Notes under the pieces: generated by a model
Databases searched by the model: none
What the model was told of the DNA's origin: nothing
Seen by the model: only the letters and a program-made list of their open reading frames with translations
Shown here: positions 2,363-45,759 of the stretch, one piece after another
Position numbering within the stretch: the first letter of the stretch is position 1
How the letters are laid out: each line of letters begins with the position of its first letter
Source: a virus
Lineage: Duplodnaviria > Caudoviricetes
Length of the DNA: 64,000 nt
IMG/VR virus record: IMGVR_UViG_3300021426_000066
Strand: one strand, 5' to 3'
Position numbers and translations under genes: made by a program

Positions 2363-5300
2363 TTAAGCCATAGCTTCAATTCTTTGCTTTAGTTGCTCAT
2401 TCTCTTGCGAGAGTTGCTCGACTTGCTTGATAAGCTTTTGAATTTGCTTTTCATGGTCTTGTTCAACAGCAAGCATAGCGGGAACAATATGACGAATATT
2501 CCAGTTTTCGACTCGATTATTATCATATATGGCTGCGATAGGATAATATTGTGCTACATCTTCAGCTATTAAACCAGGTACGTCTAACCCTTCGTAGCAG
2601 TCCCCCTCCACCAGGTATCCTTCATTATATTTAAAAGATACAACTGGAATATCTAATACTTTTTGATAGTCCGTCAGAGGCTGAATGTCATGCTTATAGC
2701 GTTTTGATGAATTCGCTGCTGCCGTCACTCTTCCAGAGGTACTAATAAATAAATTACCTGCTCCACCAGAAGTGGTACTAGATGGGGCAATCGTCGGAAG
2801 ATAAAGATATCCGTTACCATTCTGTGTATAAATAACCCATTTTCCAAGCGTGTTAGAATATAATCCAAAGTTCCCCGTAGACGAATCAGAAGCATACAAG
2901 CTTCCTTCATGATGAGAGTTCTTGACTTTAAAATATACACCCGTACCTGCTGAGGTGGAAATTACGGCATTTCCCGCAGAAACAGTAAGCCATGTAGTAT
3001 TACTGGGCTGTAGATATATACTTCCTCTAGATGCAATAGATACCGTATTTCCTTCAAGATGCGTTGAGCCAATTTGATCTTTAAATGATCCATATCCAAA
3101 TAAAATTTCATTATTTGCATTTACACCACAGAGTATTCTGTTTGTATTATCGTTAAATTTTGAATATATATACTTGGCATTAGTATCTATTGCTATATGA
3201 CCGCCAGTATATAATTCATCAGATACCTTTAACCGACCACTGGCTGTCTCTTTGATATATGAAGTGACAGACGCAGATTTATTATAATGAAAGCTGATTG
3301 CACCACCACTGGTAGCAGAACTCGCGAGATGTACTTCTCCATTAGTTGCTAACCAACATCCAAAATGATCTGTGTCATTATATGCTGTGCGGCCTCCCGT
3401 ACCAAGCCCACCAGTAACATATGTATTGGCTGTGACATAAAGGGCATGATTAACTGAAACATCATTATATAATTTTAAAGTGCCTGAAGCAGATTCATGG
3501 ATATATGAAGTTGCAGTTGTTGCTTGGTTGTAATAGAAATATATATAAGATCCACCATTGGCTGGCCCAACCAAAAATGCATTGCCTGCATTGTTTAGCC
3601 AAACTCCTGTTTTACCATCAGCGGCTTGGGTTTTACCATTTGTTCCAACACCAGTTGTGACAGTAACTCTGCCACCTACGTCAAGATTACCAGTTTCTAT
3701 AGTATAATTCCCATTATTAAACGTAACACCATTTAATTTAGTCTTATCACTTGCAGACATTATACCTGCGACAGATGCCGTAGCTTCTGGCATAACAAAT
3801 TCCCTAATTGCTCCATTATGATACCAATAGGTAGGAAGAGTGTTGGAGAATTCAAATTGTTCTGTAGTTCTAGCATAGCCAATCTGTTTGTATATGAATC
3901 CATCAGCGCTAGTGGGCAGCTCTTGCGTCCACCATGTATCTGCTAAATAAAAAAGACCTGTTGCAATATCATAAGTGCCTTTAATATACAAAGGTTGGTA
4001 TGGTGTTAATGTTGCTCCACAGTTACTACTGTATCTAAAGTTGAGAGCGATTCCATGAGAAGTAACAATATTATCACCATTCTGTGCGCCTGATGCATAA
4101 TTAGAGCTAGAAGCAAGATAATAAATCTTACCTAATTGGAAACCTGTCGTGTTTCTAGTTTTAGTCGTATCAGTACCATGATCCGTTGTGAAGCTCTGCC
4201 AGTTACCATCCGCATCCTGCATGACTAAACTATACTGCTTCATACCATTAGTACCTGCTGTGAGTCTGGTATAGTAATCTCTGACGGTATAAGTGTCGTT
4301 ATAGTCGCCTGTCTCTTGAAGCCCTTGATTAGCACCATCAAAACTCGTTAAACCAGCATAGTTTGTAGAACCAGTCCCAGGTACATCGGCATACTTCAAA
4401 GCATCTTCAAACATCGTTACAGTACAGTTTTCTGCCTCAAGGATGTCTACTCGAACAGTACGAGGATATGAAGATGAGACAGAATTTGCACTATATAGGA
4501 AACTAATACCAAGTAAGTGACCATAAGCTGATGCACCTACTTCGGTTGCTCTATACAAGTTATGATAGTAGAACGTCCTATAACTCGTACTTAAATGAGA
4601 GTTAAAGATGCTGTACGCAACATAACTATTTTCATAACCGTATATTTCAACATCAGCATAGCCATGATAATAGTTTTGATTAGGAACATCTACTTTAATT
4701 CTGTATTTGACTTTCCATACGCCATGGTATTGATCAGGTTTTACTGAAGCAAAATAAAAAGACGTACTCTCCATATTATTTGCTGACCCATACAAACCAG
4801 CATAAGTCTTTGTTCCACCACCAATAGGAGAGATATCACTATAATCTAAAACAATGTTATCGGTTAATGCCTTGCCATTGATTTGTCTGGTATTGGGAAC
4901 AGGAGTGTAGCCAAGTGCCGTTGTTACATTGGATGAAGTGAGTTCGCCTCTAATAGTGGCAGATGATTTATTCTCAACATTGCTTAAGCCAATATCAGTT
5001 TTGGTAACATTGTGAGGGTTACCAGAGGTTAACTGAGAGTGGTCATATGCTATCTTGCCACGATCTCCACGATATGCTGAGGAGGAATTTTCACCCAGAG
5101 CCAATGAAGCAGAGATTTCTACATAAGCCGATCCAGACCAACGATAAGTTTTATTGGTAGATAAGTCTACATATATCTTACTTGATTCTCCTGTGAGTTG
5201 ATTTGTATGAGCAGACTCTTTGTACATCTTATTGTTATAGTAATACGCTTCAATTACATCATCAACATAACTGGGCAATTGAGAGGAGAGGATAAGACCA

Positions 5301-8300
5301 TTAGAATCAAGTTCAGCAACCTGAGATGCTACTTTAAGCGTACCATCTGATTCCATGTAGATAGGTTGAGTGACTGAACCTAATGCAGTTTGTGGTGCGG
5401 CATGGGCAACTTGCTGCCAAGCGTTCCAAGCGGTTTGAGACGAAGTACGATAATACATGGTGTTTTTAGTTGTACTGGCATTGTAATGCATATAAATCTG
5501 CGCTGCATAATCAGGGGTAGTGTTTCCTGACGGTTTACGATAAGCCATTGTAAATACTTCACCATAGCCATAAGTGGTTGGACCATTAGTCAAAGAACCA
5601 GTAATATTAGTAACACTTGTATCATAAATTGTGTTTAAATCAGATGGTGATGATTTTAACGGAACATTGCCAGAGGCTGTTCCTGTAACGTTACCTGTAA
5701 CATTGCCAGTCAAAGCCCCATAAAAAGTCGAGGCTTCAACTTCTGTTGCTACACCGTTTCCGTTACAAAATTTATATCTATTAATTTTCGCATCCGATGT
5801 ACCATCGTGCCATTTATAGCCCACATAAAGTGTTGTTGCACTGGATGGCTTAGCTGCAAAACGTATTTCATTTTGAGCAACGATACTTAAATAATTAGCA
5901 ATAGTTGCAGTTGATGCGCTACTAGCTGTAACCGCATTACCATTCAAAGTTACGCTCCCGTTAGAATCAGCATATACAATCCACTTATTATGTTTCCTAG
6001 AATAAATACCACCGTAACCTGATGAACCAACAATAAATGCTACCTGATTAGGGTTGGTAGATTGAGTGTTATTTACTTCAACACCACATTCACCTGCTCT
6101 GGTAATATAGAGACTGTTGGAAAGAGGAACTGATGAACCCGCTGTGAGGGGTAAATCAAGTGAAGCATGACCTGTCAACGAACCTGAAAATGTAGTGGCA
6201 TGAATGCCTCCAGCATTATCTAAATAAATATTTGTATCAAAAGCAGTAGAACTCGATCCTCGCTGTCCAAAATATAAGAGACCGCCTTTGTCTCGAATCT
6301 CCCAATCATTCAGCGAATCAGTGAGGGATCCTCTTTGAAAGATAATTGCAGGAGAATTTCCTGAAGAGACAGATAAGGTTAAGTCACCTGTAAGAGTTCC
6401 ACCAGATAAAGGTAATGCATAATTCATATAATTACCAGCATGTAAAACTGCTTGTGTATCCCAATAAAAACTACCATCACCACTAAAAGTAAGTCTCTTA
6501 TAAGTATCTCCACTTTTTACTCTAAATTCAGCTTTAGTGTTGGTATGACTAGTTCCCGGTATATAATAATGCACATACACCGTTCCATCTGTGTCACTAT
6601 ATAAATTATGGTAATAGTGAGCGGGAAATCTAGACCATCTAACATCCTGATTAAATAATAGATTGCCAGACAGTGTTCCACCAGTAAGAGGGAGAGCATA
6701 TGAAGAGTAATTAACAGAATCTAATAATCGTCTCCATGACTCCCATTCTGTAGTTACTCCCATTCTAGTAAAAATACCAGTATCATTAAACGCTATTTCA
6801 TGCGCTTTCCCTCCTGAAGAATCGGCCCATCCTCGTAAACCCACAATATAAGAATATGTATCATTGGATGGATTATTTACCGTCGCTTTATTTTTTAAGC
6901 CAACGAATACAATTTTATTTTTATAATCGTTCGGAGCAGTTGCTACTGAGCGATTATCGCCTAAAGTAATTAATGCTTTGGCCTCATCTGCTGTCGTTGC
7001 TTTGGTCGCAGATCCAACACTTACGTTAGTCACATTAATCCATTTTTGTGTGCCACCATTGGCAAAACCATCAATTGTAAGAAGATAAGAAGTTGAAGTT
7101 GCTTCGGGTAAGGCAGTGCTATTAGACCATTTGATTGACCCCGTCATAGTACCGCCTGTGAGGGGCAAATAATTTGCACCATTTGCTGGCGTATATCCCA
7201 GAGCAGTAGTCACATTGCTACTCGTTAATTCACCACGGATGGTTGCTGAGGATTTGTTCTCAACATTACCGAGGCCAAGACCTGCTTTAGTGACATTTAT
7301 TGTTTTACCCTCAGTTCCATCATAAGAATTAAGCGTTGTAGAATTAAGCTGAACTGTTAATGTGGGTTTGGGGTTGTAGTTGGTTTTATAAGGAACTTGG
7401 ATGCAGGTTACGCCGTTGTCGGGTTCAGGGATAACAGAAGCTGCATCCTTAGCTGTAAACTGAAATTCAAATAATGATAAATCAATATTAGTTAATTTGC
7501 CTAAAGATTCATTTATAACATCCGCACTAACAGTGGGATAATAGATAAATGAAGATGCCCTTAAAGCAATAGCCACATATTCCGTGGAATTCTTTGTATA
7601 TTTAAATAAATAAACATTTGGATGCCAACCACCATTATCTACTACTCCTTGCATACAAAGTTCGTCACTATAGATATAAAAGACTATGCTTAAATCAATA
7701 GGACATGAGCTATTATATGCGAAACCTGTAATATGGACTATGGGCATTAGATTTGACGACACAAACTTAATACCAGTATATAAAATAATTTCATCCACCT
7801 GAGAGCTAGAATATGTACTGGCAACATTAATTCCTTGGTTTTTTATTTGTAAATAATTGTTGGATTTTAATGCCGTAGCAGTTAATAATCCAGTACTTGG
7901 ATTAGCATATATAGAATTATTTCTCAATGCAATATTAGTGCCACTTGCTCCAGTATTTGTATTTGCAAAATAACTCATTAAAAGTGGCAAATCGTAATTT
8001 TGTGAATATAATGTCTGCGTTACTTTGGTATCAGTAAACACGGCATTGCTAGGTACGTCAGCCTCAACCGTATGACCATTTACTACATCAGCACTACCAG
8101 AATAAAGCCTTACTTGTCCTTTCCTGTATGCAAAAATAGGATGGACAGCTTGGAACAAGAAGTAATTTGCTCCAGAGGATTGATTTCCTAACCGACCAAG
8201 AGTTATATAAGCTTTACCATCATCCGAAGTAGGAAGAGTATCTGTTATGATGGATGGATCTACTGTAGCTGTGTTACCAGAGATGGTCACAACTAAATAG

Positions 8301-11741: not shown

Positions 11742-13070
11742 TTAACTAAAATTACCGTCCAAAATAAGTACATCGCCCGAATCTTGCGTTAAGTATCTTG
11801 CGTTAACAGCAGAGGCGACAAGATTAACATTCCCCGTACCATCAAAATTAACCGCAGCAGCAGTTACAGCTTGAGAAATACTAAAACTACGACTATTGGC
11901 TAATTGCGTAGCCTTAGCTGCTGTATCTGTATTTGTAATGAAATTCTTATCATTGGTTAATTCAGATACTTTTGTAGGTACAATAATATCAACTGCTCTA
12001 TTAGCATCAGGCGTTAATGCAGTACCGTTCTTCTTCACTGTAACAATAACATTCTTTTCTGCATCAACTGGTGCATGAGAGCCAATTGCAAAATCATAAG
12101 CAACCTTTCCATGATCTCCACGAAAAGCTGTGGAGGATGTCTCACCCAGCGCAAGTGACGGTGAAATCTCAACATATGCTGAACCACTCCATCTATAAGT
12201 AAGATTAGTAGCTTTATCTACATAAATTTTACTTGTTTCACCAGTACCAGGGAAGCTTGCTTTATTGGTATATTCAAGAACATCATCAACATAACTAGGT
12301 AACTGAGACGAAGGTACTTTTCCTGTTGAATCCAGTTCTGCCACACCAGAGGCGGCACCCTTCTGACTTGTGGGGATCGCACTTACATCAGCCGCAGTTA
12401 TAGTTACATCAGCGGTTAAAGCATGACCATTGACTGTTCTTCCTGTAGGGACTTTCCCACTCAAAGCATCAGTAATTGCTTTTCTGGTCATAGTACCATC
12501 TGTACTATCGCCTGTTGACCCATATAATTTAACAATACCCGCTACAGTTTCACTAGCCGTTTCATAAGTCGTATCACCAGAAGTAATGGTAATAGTATCA
12601 TTTTCTGCATTAGCCGTAATAGATACGTTCGCCCCACCTTGGATAGTTAAAGTGTCTGTCTTACTATCAGCAGCAATAGTGGTAGTACCAACCGTAATAT
12701 TACTAAATGCATTCTGGTTAACCTCAGCACCAGTTGCTATACCCGCAAGTTTTGTTTTTTCCGCACTTGTATAATCGTTGGAAGATAGTCCTTTTCCAGT
12801 TTCTTTATCAACTTTATTGCCTAAAGCTGTGTTAATAGGAGATAAAGCCGTATTAATTAAACTATTAATTTCCGAAGTAGAAAGACCAAGGTATGGCAAC
12901 GAACTGTAGGCCGTCGTACCATCACCAATTTTAGCCCTTGGCGTTGAGTCTAATTCAATGCACATTTCGCCACGAAGAGGGATCAAAGCAGCATTTGCAG
13001 CTAATTCCCAGTCCGCTTTTGACTTCGCGCATAAAAGTATCCTCGTATTAAGCGTGGTCGTATTAGGCAT
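11742..13070 (-). CDS. Tail fibre / fibre-associated protein with Mtd-type N-terminus
   Basis: 'KADW…PLRGE…KIGDGTTAYSSLPY'; 'KVDKETGKGLSSNDYTSAEKTKLAGI' and 'QLPSYVDDV…YRWSGSAYVEIS' fibre modules. Confidence 0.8.
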   Translation of the reverse strand: MPNTTTLNTRILLCAKSKADWELAANAALIPLRGEMCIELDSTPRAKIGDGTTAYSSLPYLGLSTSEINSLINTALSPINTALGNKVDKETGKGLSSNDYTSAEKTKLAGIATGAEVNQNAFSNITVGTTTIAADSKTDTLTIQGGANVSITANAENDTITITSGDTTYETASETVAGIVKLYGSTGDSTDGTMTRKAITDALSGKVPTGRTVNGHALTADVTITAADVSAIPTSQKGAASGVAELDSTGKVPSSQLPSYVDDVLEYTNKASFPGTGETSKIYVDKATNLTYRWSGSAYVEISPSLALGETSSTAFRGDHGKVAYDFAIGSHAPVDAEKNVIVTVKKNGTALTPDANRAVDIIVPTKVSELTNDKNFITNTDTAAKATQLANSRSFSISQAVTAAAVNFDGTGNVNLVASAVNARYLTQDSGDVLILDGNFS

Positions 13071-14981: not shown

Positions 14982-15662
14982 TTAAATCTTCTGAATAGAA
15001 ATATTACCGTTCTCCGCAGAAGATCCACCAAGTTCAACGAGAATCTGATTTAATTGTGCTAAATCTACTCCCGTACCAACCGCTCTACCATCAGATGTTC
15101 CATACAGTTTACCCTCAGCCTGATCTACCATTAAGCCATCAAATTTATTCTGGCTCATAGAAGACGCAAGATCAGCCAAAGCAGCCGCCATCTTTTTGTT
15201 TTCAATATATAAAGAAGCAAGAGTGGATAATTCATGGTCACTAGGTGTAAGCCACGAAGAAATAGGAACAACTTTCATATAAGCAGTACCCGCACTCTGT
15301 CTTACTCTTTCAATCGTATTACCATCTTGGTCCAGTTCCGCTTTAACAAAAGTAAGACTAAATTCAACTTCCCCACATTCCTTGGTTAAATCAGTAGTCA
15401 TAGTGGTATCAGGAAGAGTGTATAATAAATAATCATCCTTATAATTATCATCAGCTAAAGTCAGTTCATATAAACCACTTGAGTTACTAATAGGAAGCTT
15501 ATATTCAAATACACCACTAAAGTCTGCCATTTCATATTCATCGTTGTATAACTTCGGGACAACAAATCTTAATGCGTCAATAGAATTAGAACGTTCTGTA
15601 ATCGCCCCTGTAGATTCGGTCAGCACAATACTGTTATCATTACGAAATAAGTAAGTATTCAT
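14982..15662 (-). CDS. BppU-N-like baseplate adaptor protein
   Basis: 'ITERSNSIDALRFVVPKLY…LTKECGEVEFSL' resembles the N-terminal domain of the 23511 gene and BppU-type domains. Confidence 0.5.
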   Translation of the reverse strand: MNTYLFRNDNSIVLTESTGAITERSNSIDALRFVVPKLYNDEYEMADFSGVFEYKLPISNSSGLYELTLADDNYKDDYLLYTLPDTTMTTDLTKECGEVEFSLTFVKAELDQDGNTIERVRQSAGTAYMKVVPISSWLTPSDHELSTLASLYIENKKMAAALADLASSMSQNKFDGLMVDQAEGKLYGTSDGRAVGTGVDLAQLNQILVELGGSSAENGNISIQKI

Positions 15663-16217: not shown

Positions 16218-19200
16218 TTATAACGAGAATTCTAAGCAAATTCCCGAATTTCCAGTAGGTGACCAATAATCTCTAGTACCAGGGGCATTGTAGCTATCAA
16301 TACCAACGATATAATGCCATGTGTAGGTATAAGCAGGCATGGCAGATCTCGTCATGTACTTACCTAATGTACCATCAGGGAATCTACGTTCTCTGTCAGC
16401 GGCAGTCAGCAGATAGTCAATGGTGTAGTTACCATTGCTGTCTGGCTCACCTGCTTCTTGGTCATAAGGTGCATAGTTAGATGTAGATACCAGAGACAGG
16501 ATAGCGGGAAGAGCAAAATAGCAATCGCCTGTTGCTACAGTTGCCGTACTTTCTGTCGTACCAGAATCAGTATAACCCTCATTAGCACTAATACGGCATT
16601 GCTTGATTAACTGTCTCCATAATACAGGAACAGCATTATAGAAACGAGTGTTCAAAATACGATAGTTCTGTTTGCTTAACCAACCGCCAGCATTCGTACC
16701 ATACATAATTGGCATAGGATTACTTAACAGATGACTCATTAAGAACGTCATACTTGTTCTTGCACCAGAACCATCAGATAAATAATACCGTCTCAATCCA
16801 CACATTTCCGCCGTAATCGTTTCTCTGGGCCATAATGCCATATCACGACAAGCTTGATCTCCTAAATCAGCATAATACAACTTCGCAGAGTAAATTGTAC
16901 CCTGTGCATAAGAACTGATAGCACCATCATCATCAATAGCTGCTCCGAATACCAGAGTAGCATGATTAGTGGTAACACTTCTTGTAGCACTAAGTGTGCT
17001 ATAAACAATAGCTTCATTAGGCTGGTTACCTGCATAGATGTGCAGAGTATTGTCACCTGCTAAGTGACGTAATACAACAATATCTCTTACATCTCCAGCA
17101 CCCACAGAGGCACTATTTGTACCCCAGATGACTTTATAACCATTCGTAGATCTGAGTCTGAATCCATTACTACCATAACCTTGATAGCATTGGAAGAGTA
17201 CGCTGTTATTACTTGTGGCGCTATTCCACTTATAGTCAACAACGAGTGTCCAATCTTTATCTTCATCAAGTAAAGGAATCTCTGTATCATAATAATCGTT
17301 GGCCGCACCTGTAAATGTTCTTTCCGTAGGAAGAAGATTTACAGATTCAATATTATCATACTCATAGTCGATTCCCATTGTGAAACTAATTCGATCTTTA
17401 GAATTAACTGTAATAGGTAATTGACCATTACGCTTATTCTGAAGAACAGCGTAAATTTGAGTCGGTGTCATATCAGCCAGACTCATTTCTTTAAGTGCAT
17501 CCTCATTGTATCTATAAGTCTCATAATCTGCTTCAATATCAATATCGCCTGTGATGATAGGATAGGTCTTCCAACCTTTGAACAGATTATAAACATAGGA
17601 AGGCTCCTGAGCAGTATAAGTGGGCATAGGACCATTATATTGAGCCGTAGAACCATAAGCGCCAGTCTTCGTATCTAACACAGTGCCATCAATATTAAGG
17701 AATCTTACTGTATATAAATGATCTGTCTCAGAATAAACAGCGCTAATTGTTCTATTGCTACGAATATTATTCAGAGATAAATCCCAACCTGTAAACGTAT
17801 AATCCTTAAGAATGGTCTTACCATCTTCCATATAAACAACCATTGTAGGAGTTGCAATAGGATTCTCTGCACGAGTAACAGGATCGACAGCATTATTGCC
17901 TTCGATAATGTGCTGAACATCAAATACTTTACCTTCAGGGTCAATATCAGGATTCTTAAATGTGACTGTGTATGCCTGTAAGATTGCAGCAGACGGTACA
18001 TCAATAACCAGATCCTGCCAAGCAGCGTGATAGCTGTCAAGCGTAAAGGTATCGGTAGCCGCAAGATGAGCAGTACCAGTCAGCACAGATTGAGTAGTTT
18101 CATAACCAGAGGCATCAACACCTGCTAAGTCAAGCAGCGTTTTCAGCCAAGCATCACTTACTGTCCAATCAACATTGGTCGCTCTGAGTCTGCGAAGATT
18201 CGTTGAATTGGTAATCATCTCAACAGTATCTACAATAGGGCAATTCTCAACGACAATACGAATCAGATTCGTATAATCAGCAATTCTGAGATCTGTTAAA
18301 TAAAGCAGATTCTTCAGCGTGATAGAAGAGATTGCAGGCAGATATGCTGTAGAAATCTTACCACCAGATGCAAATGTAATACCTGTAAACGATGTTCCAT
18401 TTGCATAGAATGTTTCAAGATTAGGGCATCCGCTTAAATCCAAAGCACCAGTAAGGTTAGGACAATTACGGACATCCAGAGTCTTCAGCAGAGTGTTATT
18501 ACCCATATTAAGAGTAGTTAAAAACGAGTTACTATATCCTTCTGTCGTGTTACCAATAGTCAGCGTCTGTAATTTTTCTGCCTTGGAGAAGTCATTATCA
18601 TGGATATAACAAGCACTCAGGTCACCAACAGACTGAATCTTGGAAGCACCATAGATAAGAATAGCAGTATCATCCATGGTATCAAAAGGACACTCAATAT
18701 CATATTCCACACCCGCTTTCGCACGAACCTGAGTACGAGACGTAGCACCGTGCATTACAGACAGATACATATTTGCATAAGGAGTCAGATGTAAGGTATA
18801 GTTGGGTTTAACGACAGCTTCTTGTGGTGTATTACATCTAATCATTATCTGGTCAGAGGTTGCCGTATTACCAAACCATCTGGTAGCCATATACATAACT
18901 TGGTCACGGATAAATTGTCTTCTATGATATTTCTTGCGTCCATTTAACATCTGGGTCAGGAATCTGGGCGTAGGAGCATAGAACCTGCCTTTTCCCAAAT
19001 AGGAATTAATATACTTGGTCTGAATGTCAAGTCTCCACAATTCTTCGGGGAACTGATTCTGCCAATTATCAAACTCATTAATCATGCCCTCAGCATTCCA
19101 GCAGTTAGCTGATTCACGGTCAATGAACATAGCTTGCAGTTCATCATGGAATAAATCTCTGACACGGCAGAAGAATGTAGACGTAGCACCATTAAACACA

Positions 19201-20111
19201 TAACCAGAATTCGGGTCACCTGGTGTACGATAATCTGTATCTTCCATACCATAAGGCATTGTCATTTCGCCACTATTATTTATGCCAAGTGCCGAGTCAA
19301 AATCATATCCCCAGAACTCAAATCTATATTCTCCATCTTCACATTTATGCCTCCACCAGAAAGTGTTCTTTGCTCTGTTATCAATCATCGTCCACTGTTC
19401 AGTAAACAGCCAGAAATACAGAGCAGAATCAAGCACAAAATAATCACCTAAGTGGTCATGGAAGTCTTGATCAGTGGAGTTAACAACAAACTTATAAAAA
19501 TCTCTGAATGCCTCAAGATTCGTCTCATGGTCTTCAGTAGTAATGTTTTTCATCTCATAACGCAGACCATAAGTTTCGGTTTTTCCTTCATTGAACGTAT
19601 CTGCTTCCAGACTGGCAATGGCTTCTGCACCACCAGGGAATGTAGAGTTTGGAAGAGTGTTATCCATAATTTCTACACAGAATTCTTTAGGATCGTTCTT
19701 ATCTACAACACGAGTTTTATCTGTCTTTTTGGAATCACCAATATTACCAATAGCATAGAAATGCCAATCTGTATCGTCATACTCTCTATGAGTAGTTAAG
19801 TCTGGATCGTTCTCTCTTACAAACACAACAGCATTATAGAATTCCATCGTATTCTTTACTTTAGAATCATTCTGTTGTGCAAGAGATTGATAAGGAAGAT
19901 AACGATTATATCTCTTTTGAAGAAGAGCGTTATTTGCATTCTCAGAACTCGCGATATTCACCTTCAAATTCATGTAGTCAACAGGTACGGACGTTCTGGA
20001 AAGACTTACTTTGCTTGCGGTTGTTCCGTCACCAAGCGTAATCACCGTAGTATCTGTATTCATAATGAAATCCAGATTTCGTCCAGCAGCAGCATATTCA
20101 TTCGAGGTAGT
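16218..20111 (-). CDS. Exon 2 of 2339-aa multidomain tail protein: CotH-like kinase core, leucine-rich repeats, InlB-B-like repeats, LamG-like domain, DUF6273/CLec-like C-terminus
   Basis: Frame open from 20111 ([16 protein letters not shown]) into ORF 16218..20063; '[13 protein letters not shown]', 'DNRAKN', 'YDFDSALG' kinase-like motifs; LxxLxL repeats; 'YTVRFLN.DG…FKGW'; 'KYMTRS…SGICLEFSL'. Confidence 0.8.
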
Positions 20112-20385
20112 CTTATTGTTACTCTTTTTAAAATAAAAAGGGATGAGTCATTTCTGCTCATCTCTGCATTTTCATTGTTAGATTATATATGCAGAACAGA
20201 TCATACCATTACCCTATTAGGGTACTCCCGTACATATAAATGTCACCATTTATATTGTGATCGTTACGGACTATTTAGTTTCATCTAAATAAGTTGCCCA
20301 CGGTATTGCCTATCTCTAGGTGTCCACCGTTTTGAGAGAGTTTGCTGTATATATTGCTATATAGAGGGGCATAACTTTTCAGTTC
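20112..20385 (-). ncRNA. Group I self-splicing intron (IA-like, 274 nt, no ORF)
   Basis: Exon ends in U (…CAG GGU) pairing with IGS GCCC; terminal G (…AAUAAG); P2 UAUAUA-GCAA-UAUAUA; P3 ACUCUC/GGGAGU; P4 ACGGUG/UACCGU; P5 CCUA-GAGA-UAGG; P6 GGGC/GUCC; P7 GAUCA/UGAUC; P7.1 with GUGA loop; P8 ACCCU/AGGGU; removal restores frame (QG|TTS). Confidence 0.93.
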
Positions 20386-23300
20386 ACCCTGTCCCGAATG
20401 AGATGCACCAGTAGCTGTCCAGTTATCTAATACTGGATCGCCATTTGTATAAATACACTGAATTGTAGTATCAGTTACTTTATCTTTCTTATCGTTCGTA
20501 AAATGAGGACAATCAAGTTTGAAGATACGAAGATCTGGACAAGCTTCAGCCAAATGTTCAGGTGTCAGATTGTTATTCTCGTCATAAATCTGATTACGAT
20601 TATATCTGTTAATCATTTCCTCAGCGCTTCTCGCATCAGCAATGAAGTTATTCAGAATATCCTTGTCAGAGAGAGAAGAGTTATAACACTTCATTCTATA
20701 AATCCATACGTCACATTCAGTAGAACCAATTGTAATATCTACAGGTGTCTCCTGTGTAAAGGAGTCATCGCTTGTATAGACCATAGGACGAAGAGCAACA
20801 CCATCTTCATAACTCATAACCATAGGAATGGTTGCAGTATCTTTGTTAATATTGAATTCAAATTCAATTATATCTTCCTCAGAGTAAGGAATCATTAAGC
20901 TGTTAACAGAAGAAGTTAAATATGCTTGATGAGGTTGCATTTGAAGCCCAACAATATTAGTATCTCCAGAACGACATGTCAGCCAAGTGGTAGACACATC
21001 CCTTACATTAGTTGTTTTGAAAATAAGCTTGAATTCCTTACCATTCTTCTTAGCGTCATCGCCAAACAGCTTATAATCAAACGTTGCCGTAGTACCTGCT
21101 TTGACACAGAAATATTGGTCACCATTACTGTCAATCTGATATCCACCATTAGTCCAGTCAAAGTTGTTGGATACAGACATATGATAAGTATCGTTGCTCC
21201 AGATTCTATCTGCACTATTATTACTATAACCAACAGGATTAAAGTCTAACTGCAAATTCGCTGTAATAGGAGCAATATCAATATCAAGTTCTTCAACAGT
21301 GACTCTAATGGTCTTGACAGTTTCACGGCAAGTAATGGTTAATGTATGTACGCCCGCAGTAGCACTCTTATAACTCCATGTATGCGTACCGTTAGTAACA
21401 GTCTGTGTTCCGATACTAACTCCATCAACTGCTAATGTAACAGTAGGTGTTTCGGTATTAGGATCATAAATGGAATAAACAATATTAGTCGTATCATACT
21501 GTTGTGCAGTAATAGCCTGTCTATTTGTACCAATTACAGGCACATCAGATGTCTCATCGAACCAAATAATATCTTTGTAAATATGATCTGTTTCAATATC
21601 GCTACCACTAATATTAGCAGTAATATAAGCATCCAATAAATGCGCTCCATGCGTCTGGGCAGGAATGGTATATCCCATAGGAAGACCAGAGGATGAAGTT
21701 GTTACTGTACCAATTTCCGTACCATCTAATTTAAAATGAACAACTTTACTAATACTACCGTAAGGCGTATAGTCAAAACTTACAGGTCCAATAGGATAAG
21801 TAAAGCTGTCATTGAACGAAGATTCCAGACGTACATCAACCATCTGTACCGTCCAAGTACGAGTGGCAAGAGTACCATTATCATCAGTAATACTTAATGT
21901 AATTTTCTGTGTACCTAAAGATACAAAATCAGTTACATCAAATGAGTATTCCTGATTAGATGCAAGAGTCTGTGTTCCAAGAACCGTATTACCGATTCTC
22001 CAAGTAGCAGTACCGCCAATATCAATGTTAGAACTATCCAATGATCTGTAATGATATCTTAAGATAACTTTCGATCCTGTTAATGCGACAACTGGAGTTG
22101 TAGTAACATAGGAAATTGTAATCGTAGAAGAAGTCTGCTGACCACCTCCACCACCTCCAACAACTTTAACTGCACATACCGCCGTAGCATTCGCACGAAC
22201 AAATTCGTCACCCTCATATGTCCAGAGAGTAAGCATATACTTTTCAGCATCACTTAAGCTGTCATCAGTATCATAAGTAATGTAATACTTTTCATTCGAT
22301 CCACCACTGACATCAATATTATCAATTGCAGTTTCAAGTTCTGCAATTTTAGTACCAATAGTAGTAATATTACTCTTGTTACTGTTAGCAGTAGATGCTA
22401 TTTCATTCATTGCAAGCTGAATAGAAGATACTGTAGTAGTATTTGCTTTGTCTGCTAACAGCGTATCAACCTCAGATGCAGTATAATACTCATCTCCATC
22501 CAGCTTACCCTCAAGAGTGGCAATAGACTGATTAATAGTGGATAAACTACTATCAATCTGAGCCTTGGTGTAATAATCATCTAGTGCAGTAGTAATAGCT
22601 TCAGAGATTTCAATATCCTGAGATAAATCAAACTGAGCAAGCTGAGTACCATTATCTGTAAAAGTAATAAAATGCGTTACAGGATTATAGGTAATAGCCA
22701 GATGTGTTGCCAGATTATCTACTTCCGTTTTGGTATAATAATCATCCAAAGCTGTTTCAATCTGACCCGCAACTTCTGTAGTCATATCCGCACGAACTGC
22801 TTCTTCAACAGACTCTGCAACATTATCTTTAATCTGGTTAAATTCATCTATCTTTTGGCTAACACTATCTACTGCATTTGTAGCCGTGGTAGCAGCATTC
22901 TTAGCATCAGTCACAGCATTATCAATCTGAATCAGATAAGATTGCCATCCATCAGTAGGCTCAATTAATTCATCGTATGATAATGCCTCTAAAACTGTAA
23001 GCTGAGAATTTGCTCTGGACTTCCAACGGTATGTTCCCGCTGAAGTAGTACCAGTAGCTTGAATTTCAAATTTTAAAGTTCCTGCAACCTGTGTCATAGC
23101 ATCATTCACAAGCATATGGAACATAATATAATCTGTACTATAAGAAACATTACAAGCAGTAGTAATAAATCCCTGTGATTGAGAATTGACTATATAGAAA
23201 CGAATAGTCATCTGCATTAAGTCAATTCCCTCAACATATCTTGGCATACGGAAGCCAATCAATTGAGCATTACTTTCCTGTGTAATGTTAATTTGATTCG

Positions 23301-23511
23301 GGGCCATCGTAATATTTTTGGCGGCATCAACAGTAGAAACAGCCTGATCATCCTTGTATTCGTCATACCAAGAATAAATATTATTTGAAACTTTAACATA
23401 GTCTGTCGCAGATTCAGGTTCGTTATCTGTTTCTGTCACGTTAGTGACCTCTTCTGTCGATTCAGAATCATCACTTATCAAATCACTAAAATTTGAAGGC
23501 ATAGGCTTCAT
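20386..23511 (-). CDS. Exon 1 of 2339-aa multidomain tail protein: BppU-N-like domain, coiled coil, Ig-like and LamG-like domains, start of CotH-like domain
   Basis: AAAGGAGG RBS; '[23 protein letters not shown]…AGTLKFEI'; 'DYYTK' repeats; 1042 codons up to the splice site. Confidence 0.8.
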
Positions 23512-24776: not shown

Positions 24777-26441
24777 TTACTTCCGCAAAATCATTTCAAT
24801 TACATCATTGCTACCCGCAGTAATTGATGTGGTAAAAGTAACTGTAATTACTAAATTGGCATAAGTAGCTGTATACTCATTGGCATTCAGCTTTAAACCG
24901 TTAAGATATATTTCAAGGAAGTGTTCGTCATCGGTGTCATATGTATAGCCAGTAGGAGAGAAGGTGATTGCCGATACTGTACCAGAAGTTAATGTCTGAA
25001 CATCTTTATATATTCTACGCTGATAAGTAAGAGTACCTGATGCAACCACATTACCTTGCCAGTCTATTGTGAGAGCATTAGAGGAGAGATTTTCTGTACC
25101 ATTACCTACTATTACTGCATAAATATTGTTTTGGTCTTCTACATTATATTTCCCAAGAGCGGTTTGAGAATTTGAACTAGCAACAGTTCCTTGATTTTGA
25201 GCGTGAGCGTAATCTCCGACTGCCTTAGTTTGATATCCTATAGCAAAAGCATTTGACCCTAAAGCAGAATCTTCTCCAATGGTAATCCAAAGATAAACAC
25301 CACTTTTATTAAGATGGGGGCCACTTGGATTAGGGTCTGTGCCTTGTGGATACTGAAAAGTTAATACACTTCCATTAACCGAATAATCGCATTTTCCTTG
25401 TATGCTCGTATCCGTCTCATAAACATGCACAACCCCTGCCCCAGATACTCCTAACTCAACTTTAGTAATTTTATCATAATCTGAAGATGGTATTTCTGTA
25501 ACCATGTCAGCGAGATCTATCGTTTTGGTTTGATAATTGGTGTAACTGCCATAGCTAACATAATAATGATTGGCAACATTTTCTTCCATACTTCCAACGC
25601 TTCTTAAACTTCCTGTAGCTGTACCATTAACAATATTAGAATTGTTTGCGGTAAGTGCCGCATTAATTACCTCATCTGCTCTTGTCTGAATTACCGTATA
25701 TTGTGCATCAGCAGCATCTTGGATGTCTCCTCGTTGTTCTGAAGCTGCAGATTCAATGTTCGTTCTCTGCGTAGTTGCCTCTCCGTTAATTGTAGTTTTC
25801 AAAGTATCAGCCTCAGAGCGAATATTGGATAACAGTTGATCTGCACTACCTGTTTCATTTTCATTAGAAAATGCATCAAGAGCAGTTTGAGCATTAGTGT
25901 TAAATGTATTTAATGCAGAACTAGATTCTTGTTGCCAAGTATCGAAATTAGTATTAATTCGTTCAATTGCTTCATTTCCAGCTACAATAGATGCACGAAT
26001 ATCAGCCAGTCTTTGTCTTGCATTATCAATCAGCCCGTTTAATTCTCCAAAATCATAAACCTTTAATACCACATCATCCGTATAAACACTCTCAGGTACT
26101 TTGATATAGAATGGAAGAGTACTAATCTGTTCATGAGTAGTAGGATGTTTGATATCGATCTGAGCATGATGTTTACCAGAGAACGCTACCAAAGACTCTG
26201 GTAGAGTAATGCTTACTGTATTATTTTCTGTCGAGAACTCCATAGCTTCTTGATAATAGTTTCCACCATACCCAGCTACCTTAAGCCAAGCATCGTAATC
26301 TTGAGTTGGAAGTATAAAAGGCTGTCCGTTATCAGTTAATGTAACCACTAATTTATGCGTATCTTTGTTATATTGTGGTATCTGAACCATAATTGAATTG
26401 TTTTTCTTTATGTCCAGACTTATTTCATGCGTAACAATCAT
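24777..26441 (-). CDS. BppU-family upper baseplate protein with YadA-like head repeats
   Basis: N-terminal 'QYNKDTHKLVVTLTDNGQPF…QISTLPFYIKV'; coiled-coil middle; 'AFAIGYQTKAVGDYAHAQNQGTVASSNSQTALGKYN' repeats; follows Dit. Confidence 0.7.
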   Translation of the reverse strand: MIVTHEISLDIKKNNSIMVQIPQYNKDTHKLVVTLTDNGQPFILPTQDYDAWLKVAGYGGNYYQEAMEFSTENNTVSITLPESLVAFSGKHHAQIDIKHPTTHEQISTLPFYIKVPESVYTDDVVLKVYDFGELNGLIDNARQRLADIRASIVAGNEAIERINTNFDTWQQESSSALNTFNTNAQTALDAFSNENETGSADQLLSNIRSEADTLKTTINGEATTQRTNIESAASEQRGDIQDAADAQYTVIQTRADEVINAALTANNSNIVNGTATGSLRSVGSMEENVANHYYVSYGSYTNYQTKTIDLADMVTEIPSSDYDKITKVELGVSGAGVVHVYETDTSIQGKCDYSVNGSVLTFQYPQGTDPNPSGPHLNKSGVYLWITIGEDSALGSNAFAIGYQTKAVGDYAHAQNQGTVASSNSQTALGKYNVEDQNNIYAVIVGNGTENLSSNALTIDWQGNVVASGTLTYQRRIYKDVQTLTSGTVSAITFSPTGYTYDTDDEHFLEIYLNGLKLNANEYTATYANLVITVTFTTSITAGSNDVIEMILRK

Positions 26442-32550: not shown

Positions 32551-35500
32551 TTAATTGTATTTAAACTTACTCAACGAATTTCTACCCATAGCTGCTCCAA
32601 GAGTCATTTCCTGTAATGCATTCTGGAACTGGGTATCTGCAACAAGCTGAGATTTGAATTTATCATAATTCTCAACACCATACAGATTGATAACAAACTG
32701 AACATCACCCATAGACTGGTTGACATTCTGGTTCATATTCTGAACAATAGGTTGAGACATAGCGCTATTGATCATATCAGGAATATTCATTTGAGCAAGT
32801 TTCCAAAGATTTTCACTCATAGCATTAGTAAATACCTTGTCACCTTTACCAAGAGGAGTAAGCATAGCACCATCAGATTTGCGATAGATGACTTCTTGTC
32901 CCTTGTCTTGAGTATAAGCAAGTTGATCCTTTTTAATGTAGGAAGAGCCAGAAGCATAAGTCTTCGCAGTTCCTTTTGCTGTCGAGGGGGCAAAAGCAGA
33001 GGCCAAAGGATTTAAAGCTTGATAAACCGTTGAATTCTTAGATGCTGTAGATGCTTTGGTCAATTTAGCCAATTCAGCAAATAATTTATTTAATTTAACT
33101 TGTAAATCGTTGTATTGTTTGTCAAGATCTGCTTTTTGTGATGCATTCTTTACCACGCGATATTTGTCTCTATTGACTCGCATTTGATTTCGGATATCCT
33201 CAATTTGATCCAATAACGCCCGCTCTTTAGCTTTGTCCACTTGTGTAGTATTTTTAGAGTTTGTGGATATAACTCCTTTATTTTGTTTTGTTATCGCTGC
33301 AAAAACAGCGTCTGCTTGTCGCTGAGTGTCTTCAGTCAACTCTGCTTTGTCTGCTTTCGGTCTAGCGGGACGATCAGCTCCATCCTTGGCTTTTCTTAAG
33401 TCGCTAACTTTTGTAACAACAGCATCAAAACTACCTTTAAGACTCTTATTAACAAAATCCTTTTGAACTTGTGTTAAACTATCATAATATTGTTTCAACT
33501 CATTAACGGAAGCTTCATCATCTAATGTAATTTGATTTTGATTCAGCTTATTAACTAAACCTTCAGCCCTTGTTTCAAACTTTGTAGCAGCTTCTCTATC
33601 AGGTTGTTGAGCAATATATGTTTGCAACTGTTTAAAGATATCGTTCAATAAAGAAGCAGTAGTTGTTTGATCACCATTAAGAGTTAACGCAGAAGTCAGC
33701 GCACTAGATAAGCTATCAACCTTTCCACCAAGTCCGCTCTCTAAGCTATTTAAAGTTTGTACGGTAGACTTAGCAAATTCAGTACTACCAAAGTTATTGA
33801 TATTACCTGCCAAAACTTGAGCCGCTTCTTTAATAACAGCATCACGATCCTTCATATGAGACTCAATCCATTCTTGGAAATTGTTAGATAAATCATCTAA
33901 CATCTTCTGTGAATCAGAAAGGTATTTATCATATTGCTGATCAGATTGATTCTGTCTAGCTTCTTTTAAATCAGCACGAAGTTTCTGGACTCTTGCAACA
34001 GCTTCTTCGGAAGTATTACCTTCAAAAGCGGCTAATTGCTTCTCAAGATTGGTAATATTTTTACTTGACTCAGAAATCTGTTTCTGATAGTCATAAGCAT
34101 CTTTTTCAGCATTCTTTAATTCTTTATACTTATCAATGGTCTTATTGAGATAGGAGAGTTGTGATTCATAAGCTTGTCTAACTAAGTCAATAATAGCCTG
34201 TTTCTCAGCTTCAGTAGCCTCAACGCTTTCCCAATATGCATCGGTCAGTTGTTCAAGTCTATCTCTTACATCTTTATCTGCAATATCATCTTGTTGAGAT
34301 TCGATTCGCTTTTGTAATGCACCAATTTCTTCCGCATACTTTTGCGTTTCCGCAATGAGAGAAGAGTAATTGGCAGTATGCAGGTCTAATGATGCAAGTC
34401 CATATTCAGTAATTTGACCTCTATTATCATCATCAAATAATGTTTGATTTGCAAGGATATTCTGATAATGTTGAATTTCTGCATTAAATCTCTTTACAGC
34501 AGCCATGCCATCATCAAATTCAGTCCATTTTAATTGACGTTTCGCCTTGGATAATTCAATAATGGATTCTGTCAGAGACTCAATATCATTGGTGAAGCCA
34601 TTAATTTCTGCTAATGAAGATGCATAGTCTGGAGTACCAGGTACTAAATCACCACTCTCAACTCGTGCATTGAATTTATCAATAGCTTTTGCACGATTGC
34701 TAAGCAATAACTCCATATTACGATTAGACATTTGAAGTTGCTCATCATAATCAGACTCTTGTGCATAATAACCTTGAGTTCCTGCTAAACTGATATGATT
34801 CTTAGCACGAGTAATACGTTGCTCATTACTATCTGTTGTATTATATGCAAAACGATTTTTATCTGTTTGATGTAAAGAGTAGGTACTTGCACCATTGCCT
34901 AATCTGGATTGTGCATTATAATCAGCTTCATCACGGAAGTTCTTTACTTCTTCGTATGCTCTGGCAGAATTTTCTTTCTTCTGCGCTTCCATAGCCATAT
35001 CATAAGCATATTGAGCGGATTTTTCAGCTTCGAGCCATTCGTTATATCTAATGCATTGTTCCATAAAATTATCAGAAATCTTGCCTTTAGAATAGAGATC
35101 TGCAAGTTTATCCATATTAGGAATGGCTTGTCCATCATGTGCTGCCTGAAGTGCCTTGTTAACTTCGGTTTCGTCTTTTCCAGACAGGCCCATACTCTTA
35201 AGATTAGTTATACTGATTGTATTCCCAAGATCCTTGCGTTGGTTCATCCAGTATGTAAGCCGCTTTTGAGCATTAGCCGTAATATTCCTTTGAATACCAA
35301 TTTCTTGATCCAATAAGGTATTCTTTTCCACAGCAGTGGTACGATTTTCCTTCTGAGACTCTTTTAAAGAAATATCATTGTTGTACGCTTGTTCAATATT
35401 CTCATAAAGAGAATTAGTGTTATTCGTTCTGCTTGCCGCATTTTCAGCATAAGCTGCAACTTCCTCTAAACGGGCAGCTTGCAAATTTGCAACTGTCTGA

Positions 35501-41208: not shown

Positions 41209-41581
41209 CGATATGTTAACTTATAGGCTTTTTATCCTATAATTCTGGAAGTTTCCTTCATACTACTATCGGCTAAATAATAGATACGTCTGTCAATTCA
41301 GACCAGTCCAGCATATATTATCACCCTCGTTTAACGTTAGGACAATAGGAGACTAACCCTATTGTAAGTATTCTATAAACACTTGTGCAAACCACTCTTG
41401 CGGACATTTTATTCTGTTTATTAAAAACAGGTTCAATCCGTATGCGTTACGGTGCTATAAGTTTTTTAATCCTCATAGTTACCTCGGTGTTAACTTGTTA
41501 ATTTATTCATAAATTAATTTAGTCTTCACCGATTTTGGTTTGTTTTCAATAAATCATTTCTGATTTATGCTCCTAATTAAA
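41209..41581 (-). ncRNA. Group I self-splicing intron (IA-like, 373 nt, no ORF)
   Basis: Exon ends CUCU pairing with IGS GGAG (U·G at splice site); terminal G (…AUAUCG); P2 AUAAAUCA-GAAA-UGAUUUAU; P3 CAAACC/GGUUUG; P4 UCGGUG/CACCGA; P6 GGU/ACC; P7 GCAUA/UAUGC; removal restores frame (MDYS|KGI). Confidence 0.92.
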
Positions 41582-45656: not shown

Positions 45657-45669
45657 AAATCCTCCTAAC

Positions 45670-45759
45670 AAAAAAAACATGACTCAATTAGACCCACAAA
45701 CAAAATGACAAATAAAATAATTATTAATAAAGAGGTATTTAGCGTCTAATCGAGCCATG
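45670..45759 (-). promoter_or_regulatory. Large-loop terminator/attenuator in the leader of the PAPS-reductase-like gene
   Basis: 16-bp stem 45744-45759/45678-45693 with two G·U pairs on minus-strand RNA, 50-nt loop, U8 tract, then RBS. Confidence 0.6.

Follow-up and report, generated by a model that had tools for sequence, protein, structure and literature searches.

The window, by which we mean the whole 64-kb stretch of phage DNA that was analysed, carries two long open reading frames on the minus strand between positions 16218 and 23511. As judged by sequence comparison, this region is a single tail-module gene, split by a 274-nt insert with group I intron features. Its parts are as follows:

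20281-23511, minus strand: ORF1, 1076 aa
16218-20063, minus strand: ORF2, 1281 aa
20386..23511, minus strand: exon 1, residues 1-1042, ending in ...SHSGQG
20112..20385, minus strand: ORF-less group-I-like intron, 274 nt
16218..20111, minus strand: exon 2, 1297 residues plus stop
22978..23400, minus strand: N-terminal beta-sandwich of BppU-N-like fold, residues ~38-178 (by structure only)
22192..22959, minus strand: coiled-coil stalk, residues ~185-440, modelled as a homotrimer
21277..22119, minus strand: Ig-like domains, after a poly-Gly hinge
20647..21264, minus strand: conserved 'LamG-like' block before the kinase, putative fold
18870..20538, minus strand: CotH kinase-fold domain, cut by the intron (Pfam and predicted fold)
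19929..19967, minus strand: 13-residue motif including KVN..SSE, with the candidate ATP-binding Lys
19365..19382, minus strand: DNRAKN, catalytic-loop-type D-x4-N
19284..19307, minus strand: YDFDSALG, metal-binding-type DxD motif
17994..18626, minus strand: leucine-rich repeats (LRRs)
17454..17981, minus strand: two ~85-residue beta repeats (YTVTF...F.GW...), possibly List_Bact_rpt/InlB-B-like
16809..17411, minus strand: second LamG-like region, as a lead only
16221..16766, minus strand: C-terminal DUF6273/C-type-lectin-like tip

An earlier note on this DNA had proposed that the two frames give one very large protein after splicing, and the homologues bear this out. Two intact homologues, P0005 and P0004 (2351 and 2357 aa), read ...SHSGQG|TTSNEY... 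with no residue lost or gained at the junction. The BLASTP match of exon 1 to P0005 ends exactly at residue 1042, and the last 34 codons of ORF1 are read-through into the intron; exon 2, whose start at 20111 was set by homologue alignment, shows 84% identity to P0005 (from residue 1047 on) and 83% to P0004. Because these intact proteins bridge the junction residue for residue and base for base, ORF1 and ORF2 were taken as one gene, with a spliced product of 2,339 aa. Both frames also match PHROG 14959 in colinear order, and in the Heliusvirales phage NatCom_3357 both parts lie within one 1,673-aa CDS that follows the genes for the tape measure and Dit. A megablast search with the gene found no match in the phage collection.

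In the DNA alignment against the intron-less loci L002 and L003, the 274 nt form a clean insertion between GGT and ACT, with a U closing the 5' exon and a G closing the insert. The insert folds with an MFE z-score of -4.7, and a base-by-base check showed that helices P1-P9.2 all pair, with a P3/P7 pseudoknot and four GNRA loops. The group I criteria found are thus the 5'-splice-site U paired to a G in P1, the terminal G, and a P3-P8 core containing the pseudoknot, while the P7 sequence (GAUCA/UGAUC) is unusual. The Rfam group I model RF00028 was matched neither in the whole window at the gathering score nor in 19900-20600 at E up to 10; the related introns in L005 and L006 likewise had no Rfam match, and when viral contigs were scanned with a core pattern for introns homologous to that of the window, the five matches returned were due to chance. 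The window's intron also aligns poorly with the L006 introns, which clearly resemble each other. Judged by its boundaries and helix set, the insert is a small, putative group I intron of the self-splicing type. Relatives of the gene carry introns at nearby sites in the same domain, some of them with HNH/NUMOD4 or I-HmuI-like endonuclease genes, and across the family group I introns have repeatedly entered codons belonging to the Gly-loop, Lys and DxD motifs. Such repeated invasion of catalytic-motif codons provides independent evidence that constraint is strongest at these sites.

The N-terminal domain had been described as a BppU-N-like anchor. As to fold, this description stands, since the predicted structure agrees with the N-domain of TP901-1 ORF48; as to sequence membership it does not, since residues 1-210 gave no Pfam match to BppU_N (PF10651) at E up to 5 and an hhalign comparison of the family N-terminus with a small BppU_N set gave a non-significant probability of 0.9%. 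One family member, P0124, does have a true BppU_N N-terminus. The coiled coil that follows, also part of the earlier description, was supported by a three-copy model of residues 36-330, which scored 0.63 against 0.00 for the best of three controls and showed contacts with a 3-4 residue periodicity over residues 203-330; at least 72% of the contacts agreed between model runs, and the partner pLDDT was at least 74. Of proteins with solved structures, 20 of 30 that form pairs of one chain attain the score mark applied here, as does 1 of 23 single-chain proteins; since many solved structures are coiled-coil fibres, the trimer pass may partly reflect likeness to them. Elsewhere in the window, the tail context comprises a tape measure, S74-chaperone fibres and a separate, true BppU_N protein at 24777-26441. 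The BppU-like N-domain, the modelled trimeric coiled coil and the tail-module position together argue for a baseplate-attached virion protein.

The domains on both sides of the kinase were assigned with varying firmness. The Ig-like region has matches to PHROG 14959 and 24896, a weak Big_7 match and a Big_3_5 score slightly below the cut-off (34.7 against 35.5 bits). The LRRs reached the LRR_4 cut-off by a narrow, borderline score (27.2 against 27 bits; ORF2 residues 470-700); the family profile matches the LRR protein 4ezg (E 0.005), and other family members match LRR_5 and LRR_8 strongly. The C-lectin-like end is a probable DUF6273 domain (PF19789) by homology: in the C-terminal ~190 residues the window's copy is unmatched at E up to 0.1, whereas Pfam recognises the domain in 16 of 20 aligned homologues (best 1.2e-17), and the Atlas feature score is 0.98. 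The 'LamG-like' and 'InlB-B-like' labels fared less well. Laminin_G_3 has been reported for the family (PMC5758913), and the block before the kinase has 8.5% invariant columns in 35 homologues, but neither LamG-like region, searched as an isolated piece, gave a Pfam match to Laminin_G_3 (PF13385), and the second is a lead from Atlas Laminin_G_3 clusters (0.92). The beta repeats were recognised as a pattern by eye; List_Bact_rpt/InlB B-repeat (PF09479) had no Pfam match at E up to 5, nor in 20 homologues, Flg_new was likewise unmatched in the isolated pieces of the window's copy, and the Atlas lead for this label reached 0.75 only. The layout predicted from N- to C-terminus is a BppU-N-like sandwich, coiled coil, Ig-like domains, lectin-like block, CotH, LRRs, beta repeats, LamG-like region and DUF6273.

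The CotH domain had been held to be invisible without splicing. This is not so: the downstream ORF alone (P0002) matches Pfam CotH (PF08757) with 28.0 bits against a cut-off of 23.8 (E 1.9e-6) over profile positions 120-290 of 322 only, and what the intron cuts off is just the N-lobe and the Gly-loop. The intact homologue P0005 gives 26.1 bits. The atypical protein-kinase-like fold of B. cereus CotH was recovered as a complete domain in a model of the 84%-identical intact homologue, rather than of the window's own joined sequence, and Fam20 with bound sugar was among the weaker structural neighbours. By Pfam and predicted structure, the proposed CotH fold is therefore genuine and complete. Sequence searches of the PDB, by phmmer with the intact CotH domain and with a 35-sequence family profile, did not reach CotH and returned only coiled-coil and LRR noise.

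DNRAKN and YDFDSALG lie where the earlier note placed them, the 13-residue motif that it also quoted is at the position listed above, and QG|TTSNEY...GRN spans the junction. Two of the three conditions that the earlier note named as refuting its reading, a fold that is not kinase-like and catalytic residues that vary among homologues, were checked and do not hold; QGTxS, KVN..SSE, DNRAKN and YDxD are all invariant across 35-44 diverse homologues. The invariant positions are K, N, A, S, S and N in the 13-residue motif, D, N, K and N in DNRAKN, and Y, D, D and G in YDFDSALG; the pattern DN[RH][AS]KN occurs in 208 of 222 long homologues. The whole catalytic-type set (Gly-loop, Lys, loop D and N, and both Asp of DxD) is invariant among homologues with 29-73% identity, and conservation peaks in the lectin-like/CotH core of a protein whose two ends vary freely. 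In B. subtilis CotH, which phosphorylates CotB and CotG during coat assembly, the D228 and D251 mutants are inactive (PMC7821199). The D of DNRAKN and both D of YDFD fall inside the Pfam-matched range, and we infer the residues equivalent to D228/D251 from motif spacing, this range and whole-domain superposition rather than from a residue-level alignment. The putative kinase domain is complete and apparently active.

More than 1,500 homologues, uninterrupted and colinear with the spliced product, were found over 2,243 aa, with 64 loci in species-representative genomes, and most come from phages of gut Clostridia. The CotH core is conserved across phages of very different hosts, namely Clostridia prophages and Bacteroides Hankyphage-type phages, and the Hankyphage p00 proteins match the window protein directly with 24% identity; the host of the window phage is probably a member of the Clostridia rather than of Bacteroides. 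The earlier note knew of no characterised function for such a protein in a phage tail. This is true, and our literature search found no characterised phage CotH protein; however, the architecture itself has already been described in four papers, where 'CotH + lectin + LRR' phage proteins of more than 2000 aa appear as unstudied DGR targets (PMC5758913; PMC8008677; bioRxiv 10.1101/2020.04.01.020958; bioRxiv 10.1101/2024.11.15.621889). These large DGR-target proteins form category f1 of Wu et al. 2018 (PMC5758913), PC_00012 of Roux et al. (bioRxiv 10.1101/2020.04.01.020958) and 'domain group 3' (bioRxiv 10.1101/2024.11.15.621889), and Benler et al. 2021 remark on them (PMC8008677). In the window, the 3' end of the gene (16218-16800) has no template-repeat partner within the 64 kb, and no reverse transcriptase was found among the ORFs scanned. 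The only long diverged repeat (5043-5329 versus 12094-12353), considered as a DGR pair, was rejected, since it is coding sequence that two fibres share as paralogues and its mismatches show no adenine bias. The family is not new; what is particular here is the intron, the recurrent introns at catalytic-motif codons of the relatives, and that no DGR was found in the window.

How, then, might this protein work? The explanation that we favour, with moderate confidence, is a single spliced, trimeric baseplate fibre with a putative working CotH phosphotransferase core. The N-domain and coiled coil would hold the trimer on the baseplate, as BppU does in TP901-1-type siphophages, and the variable distal LRR, lectin and DUF6273 modules would bind the host surface. 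The lectin-like/CotH core would be a working Mg/Mn-dependent phosphotransferase, because the Gly-loop, Lys motif, D-x4-N and DxD are invariant while the ends of the protein vary freely. Its site of action would be the infected cell, where ATP is available, and its substrates the fibre protein itself or further virion proteins as the tail is assembled. This assembly-time role, likened to that of CotH on the coat proteins in spore-coat assembly, is our preferred guess and carries somewhat more than a third of the weight.

The main alternative, which we consider rather unlikely, is that the CotH core acts outside the cell at adsorption, transferring or handling phosphate on a component of the host envelope, be it a glycopolymer of the wall, a teichoic acid or a protein of the surface, while the lectin-like domains on either side serve like the carbohydrate-binding modules of a glycan-active enzyme. 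The position of the kinase between lectin-like and LRR modules in a fibre with a receptor-binding-type C-lectin at its tip is consistent with this idea, as are the joint conservation of the lectin-like block with CotH and the fact that several kinase-fold enzymes act on sugars, with sugar-bound Fam20 among the structural neighbours mentioned above. However, ATP is scarce outside cells, and conservation of the core across phages of such different hosts is easier to reconcile with a substrate that is universal or intrinsic to the phage than with a host-specific polymer. A virion-borne core that transfers phosphate extracellularly on the host envelope, or senses extracellular nucleotide, in adsorption or penetration is in our view unlikely. 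If true, phosphoryl transfer, instead of depolymerisation, would be a novel kind of enzyme activity associated with tails, common to thousands of gut phages and under constraint so strong that its catalytic codons are repeatedly targeted by homing introns.

It is also conceivable, if improbable, that CotH is a non-catalytic binding or scaffold module that keeps a nucleotide- or phospho-ligand pocket, the protein being purely an adhesin. Many phage fibre domains are purely structural, and fungal CotH proteins are reported as invasins and ligands, not enzymes (PMC9973265); against this, pseudokinases usually lose some catalytic-type residues, whereas every one of them is retained among the 29-73% identical homologues. 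Very improbable in our judgement is an effector first and structural protein second, whose kinase would target host cytoplasmic proteins, interfering with host signalling either ahead of packaging or once delivered. A role of this kind was put forward for CotH proteins that are DGR targets (bioRxiv 10.1101/2020.04.01.020958), and a protein made in the cytoplasm would have ATP at hand, but this one is late and structural by gene position, forms one chain with an anchor of baseplate type, a trimeric stalk and tips of the receptor-binding type, and nothing points to the injection of a ~260-kDa fibre subunit. Least probable of all is that splicing does not occur and a dead mobile element broke the gene, leaving the phage with two separate proteins or a fibre that does not work: no group I intron is detected by Rfam, and ORF2 could start at an ATG of its own 16 codons past the junction, but both halves are intact over 1,042 and 1,297 codons with 60-84% identity to intact homologues, the insertion is base-exact with U/G boundaries and a full group-I-type helix set, and a product of exon 1 by itself would carry 34 junk residues at its end and hold a kinase N-lobe cut off from the rest of the domain.

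Giant fibre proteins with a CotH domain rank among the most frequent large proteins that phages of gut Clostridia and Bacteroides encode, and to what is known of them the window adds a high-confidence fold assignment, an invariant catalytic set and the repeated intron invasion of catalytic codons. As gene callers split such proteins, surveys that use called ORFs under-count and mis-annotate CotH fibres. Homologues occur in the cultured lysogens Ruminococcus sp. YE282, Clostridium transplantifaecale Marseille-P8228, Clostridium sp. chh4-2 and Coprococcus catus, which makes the kinase question testable.

Compared with known systems, the window protein shares with the published DGR-target CotH proteins its size of more than 2,000 aa, the CotH motif region, lectin/carbohydrate-binding modules, LRRs, the probable C-terminal C-lectin (DUF6273), the phage tail context and the gut origin, but its gene is intron-split and stands in a 64-kb window in which neither an RT, among the ORFs scanned, nor a template repeat for the 3' end was found. 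The insert resembles phage group I introns in its highly conserved codon as the site, the U at -1, the terminal G, the P1-P9 core and the GNRA loops, and differs from them in having an unusual P7, no RF00028 match and no ORF; phage group I introns occur with or without HNH endonucleases (e.g. I-HmuI), and some of the relatives' introns in this same gene carry HNH/NUMOD4 or I-HmuI-like ORFs. The Bacillus CotH spore-coat kinase (PDB 5JD9/5JDA; PF08757) shows ~11% sequence identity to the phage domain, which has ~130 extra residues as insertions; Bacillus CotH is a free 42-kDa protein, whereas the phage domain sits mid-way in a 2,339-aa fibre. With BppU (ORF48) of TP901-1 and its counterparts in the 80alpha/NF5 baseplates, the window protein has in common an N-terminal beta-sandwich followed by a helical trimerisation stalk, and a gene in the baseplate/fibre block after the tape measure, though it has no detectable sequence similarity to Pfam BppU_N. 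In contrast to BppU, which has ~300 aa and works with separate receptor-binding proteins, the protein described here has ~1,900 residues of putative enzymatic and binding domains fused onto its anchor.

The gene for the mega-protein is divided between two long ORFs, which are separated by a gap of 217 nt and lie in different reading frames:

20281-23511, minus strand: P0001, a long ORF of 1076 aa
16218-20063, minus strand: P0002, a long ORF of 1281 aa

Both ORFs matched the 2494-position profile phrog_14959 colinearly (P0001 residues 451-990 at profile positions 501-1091, and P0002 residues 93-695 at 1362-2000). A search limited to longer proteins returned 1,557 homologues of 2,243-5,000 aa, the majority of which are about 2,350 aa long and span 100% of P0002. 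The alignment of the closest homologues, the intron-less P0005 (2351 aa) and P0004 (2357 aa), to P0001 stops at ...SHSGQG (P0001 residue 1042), beyond which both proteins run gaplessly into the frame beginning at window position 20111. In the DNA of the intron-less loci, CAGGGT is followed directly by ACTACC, whereas an insert of exactly 274 bases separates GGT from ACT in the window; the predicted spliced protein comprises 1042 + 1297 = 2,339 residues. These comparisons show that P0001 and P0002 belong to a single gene. The observation in the earlier note of a putatively spliced mega-protein was confirmed overall: the motifs quoted there lie at the positions given, P0005 and P0004 bridge the junction, and the insert is clean in the DNA.

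Group I introns are marked at their boundaries by a U at the end of the 5' exon, which forms a U.G pair, and by a terminal intron G. In the fibre-gene insert, the 5' exon ends in a U able to pair as U.G with the intron GCCC, and the last intron base is G. Its minimum free energy was 4.7 sd under shuffles, and a base-by-base check showed that P1, P2, P3, P4, P5, P6/6a, P7, P7.1, P8, P9, P9.1 and P9.2 all pair. P3 (CUCUC/GGGAG) and P7 (GAUCA/UGAUC) cross in the manner of a group I pseudoknot, and GNRA loops close four of the hairpins. The Rfam search gave no match even at E up to 10, so the insert is not assigned to RF00028, and a core-pattern scan of viral contigs found no homologues of this intron. 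The insert is predicted to be spliced; an unspliced insert is less likely.

Introns of group I type were also found in relatives, within the same domain of the gene:

L005:1-766: intron encoding an HNH_3/NUMOD4 endonuclease, with its 3' end immediately ahead of the AA in the Gly-loop Gln codon
L006:910-1217 and 1432-1762: two ORF-less introns
L008:5852-6982: intron encoding an I-HmuI-like endonuclease, directly after the second Asp of DxD (between FDYDND and TALG)

One L006 intron occupies the same Gln-codon site as that of L005, and the other splits the Lys motif between KV and N. The 3' end of the L005 intron, whose 5' junction is beyond the contig, falls at the site of L006 intron A, the 5' splice site of which is apparently preceded by C rather than the usual U. 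The relatives' introns thus occupy three sites other than the window's, and two of them carry endonuclease genes; with the window included, at least four insertion sites are present in the family, all in catalytic-motif codons. Fragmentary homologues pile up at the relatives' intron positions. Several of the homologous loci L014-L077 match the kinase domain only in part, which suggests further interruptions. A second intron-like insert (41209-41581, minus strand) splits the tape-measure gene between ORFs 41573-43840 and 32551-41145. It folds 4.9 sd under shuffles, and since its 3' end (GGAUAAAAAGCC...AACAUAUCG) is similar to those of the L005 and L006 introns, it is a clearer member of their family than the fibre-gene intron.

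The structure predicted for an intact, 84%-identical homologue showed a complete CotH fold. Pfam CotH (PF08757) matched P0002 alone with 28.0 bits, above the gathering score of 23.8, so the domain is visible without splicing and only its N-lobe is severed. The earlier interpretation is partly supported: the single gene and the CotH fold stand, and the catalytic-type residues are invariant in homologues, but the claim that CotH is invisible without splicing does not hold. Two alignments, of 35 homologues (29-73% identical to P0005) and 44 homologues (32-88% identical to the folded domain), had the same invariant residues: Q, G, T, S and Y of QGTxSxxY; K, N, A, S and S of KVNxASSE; D, N, K and N of DNRAKN; and Y, D, D and G of YDxDxxxG. 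Among 222 long homologues, strict patterns were found for the Gly-loop in 221 and for the catalytic loop in 208. The DxD motif lies about 26 residues past the D-x4-N loop, a distance that matches the one between catalytic and DFG-type motifs in kinases. About 20 viral proteins in BFVD have the same CotH fold, some already labelled 'CotH kinase protein' or 'internalin-like'. D228Q and D251A inactivate Bacillus subtilis CotH (PMC7821199); we can only infer that the DNRAKN and YDxD residues are equivalent to D228 and D251, because sequence searches against the PDB did not reach CotH and gave no residue-level alignment.

The N-terminal fold was BppU-like in the structural model. Three-copy co-folding of residues 36-330 scored 0.63 (best of three controls, 0.00), a pass that may reflect likeness, because coiled-coil fibres abound among solved structures; among proteins with solved structures, 20 of 30 one-chain pairs and 1 of 23 single chains scored this high. 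Contact agreement between runs was at least 72%, partner pLDDT was at least 74, and contacts were spaced 3-4 residues across residues 203-330, resembling a trimeric coiled coil. Big_3_5 scored 34.7 bits in the Ig-like region, under its cut-off of 35.5, and LRR_4 scored 27.2 bits in the LRR region (cut-off 27), where the family profile also matched the LRR structure 4ezg at E 0.005. At the C-terminus, 16 of 20 homologues had DUF6273, described as C-type-lectin-like (PMC10743442), and the Atlas scored this region at 0.94-0.98. Neither the two LamG-like blocks nor the InlB-B-like repeats proposed earlier were confirmed, as no Pfam match was obtained; the Atlas leads were Laminin_G_3 (0.92) for the C-terminal LamG-like block and a Flg_new/DUF6273 cluster, at only 0.75, for the repeats.

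Across 35 homologues, the proportion of invariant columns was 8.5% in the first lectin-like block, 11.4% in the linker and 9.9% in CotH, and 0% in the N-domain, coiled coil, second LamG-like block and DUF6273. By this measure, the enzyme core is the part retained by the family and the ends are swapped or diverging, a pattern that fits an anchor at one end and a receptor-binding tip at the other. Residues 1-37 (window 23401-23511) form an acidic, Ser/Thr-rich, low-confidence tail (SDDSESTEE...TETDNEPES), whose sequence is not kept in homologues; as pure speculation, it might be a substrate of the protein's own kinase.

Gene order places the mega-protein gene in a tail context, and the intron-less relative L002 has a tail block in identical order:

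32551-41145 plus upstream exon: tape measure
1,577-aa fibre with S74 chaperone
Small baseplate ORFs, including a true BppU_N protein (24777-26441, minus strand)
16218-23511, minus strand: mega-protein
Four small conserved ORFs
442-aa fibre
3,064-aa S74 fibre

The N-terminal 167 residues of the 554-aa protein at 24777-26441 are BppU_N (phmmer E 1e-37 to a Pfam-labelled BppU_N protein of L002), so the baseplate would have two or more anchors of BppU type. The 226-aa ORF 14982-15662 resembles this ORF by eye. A PAPS-reductase-family protein (44487-45680) lies within the structural block. The 3,064-aa and 442-aa fibres have in common DNA that is 70-74% identical (5043-5329 and 12094-12353) and a peptide block (...YRWSGSAYVEIS...); the mismatches had no adenine bias, which ruled out a DGR template/variable pair and makes this a paralogous fibre module. 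The GH25 + PG_binding_1 lysin at 1332-2288, a likely endolysin, points to a Gram-positive host. Most homologues come from Clostridia, in genomes and MAGs of human and animal gut origin, cultured isolates among them; Ruminococcus sp. YE282, Clostridium transplantifaecale Marseille-P8228 and Clostridium sp. chh4-2 carry homologues and are possible experimental systems.

We propose that the mega-protein would be anchored on the baseplate as a trimer whose distal modules may bind the host and whose CotH core would be an active phosphotransferase. This core would act during assembly, phosphorylating itself or virion proteins, by analogy with CotH in spore-coat assembly. We favour this role because the core is fused to a virion protein made in the cytoplasm, where ATP is plentiful, and because its conservation does not follow host range. 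The main rival is that the core works on the host envelope at adsorption; a CotH domain that only binds is less likely.

In the thirteen DGR targets of about 2,000 aa described by Wu et al. (2018; PMC5758913), CotH and Laminin_G_3 motifs are combined with a variable region of C-lectin type. A protein of this kind was modelled by Roux et al., who proposed manipulation of host signalling (bioRxiv 10.1101/2020.04.01.020958), a role that for the present protein is less likely than one in assembly. According to Benler et al. (PMC8008677), phages have fusions of CotH kinase domains with hypervariable C-lectins, which 'are currently unstudied', and a 2024 preprint (bioRxiv 10.1101/2024.11.15.621889) reported Bacteroides phage proteins of >2,000 aa in which CotH (5JDA) occurs together with LRRs and carbohydrate-binding motifs. 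From this literature and the BFVD entries, giant proteins with CotH and lectin form a known yet uncharacterised class. Compared with the CotH-bearing DGR targets of other phages, the window's member differs in three respects: an intron splits it, neither a reverse transcriptase among the scanned ORFs nor a template repeat was found within the 64 kb window, and it belongs to the Clostridia-phage branch.
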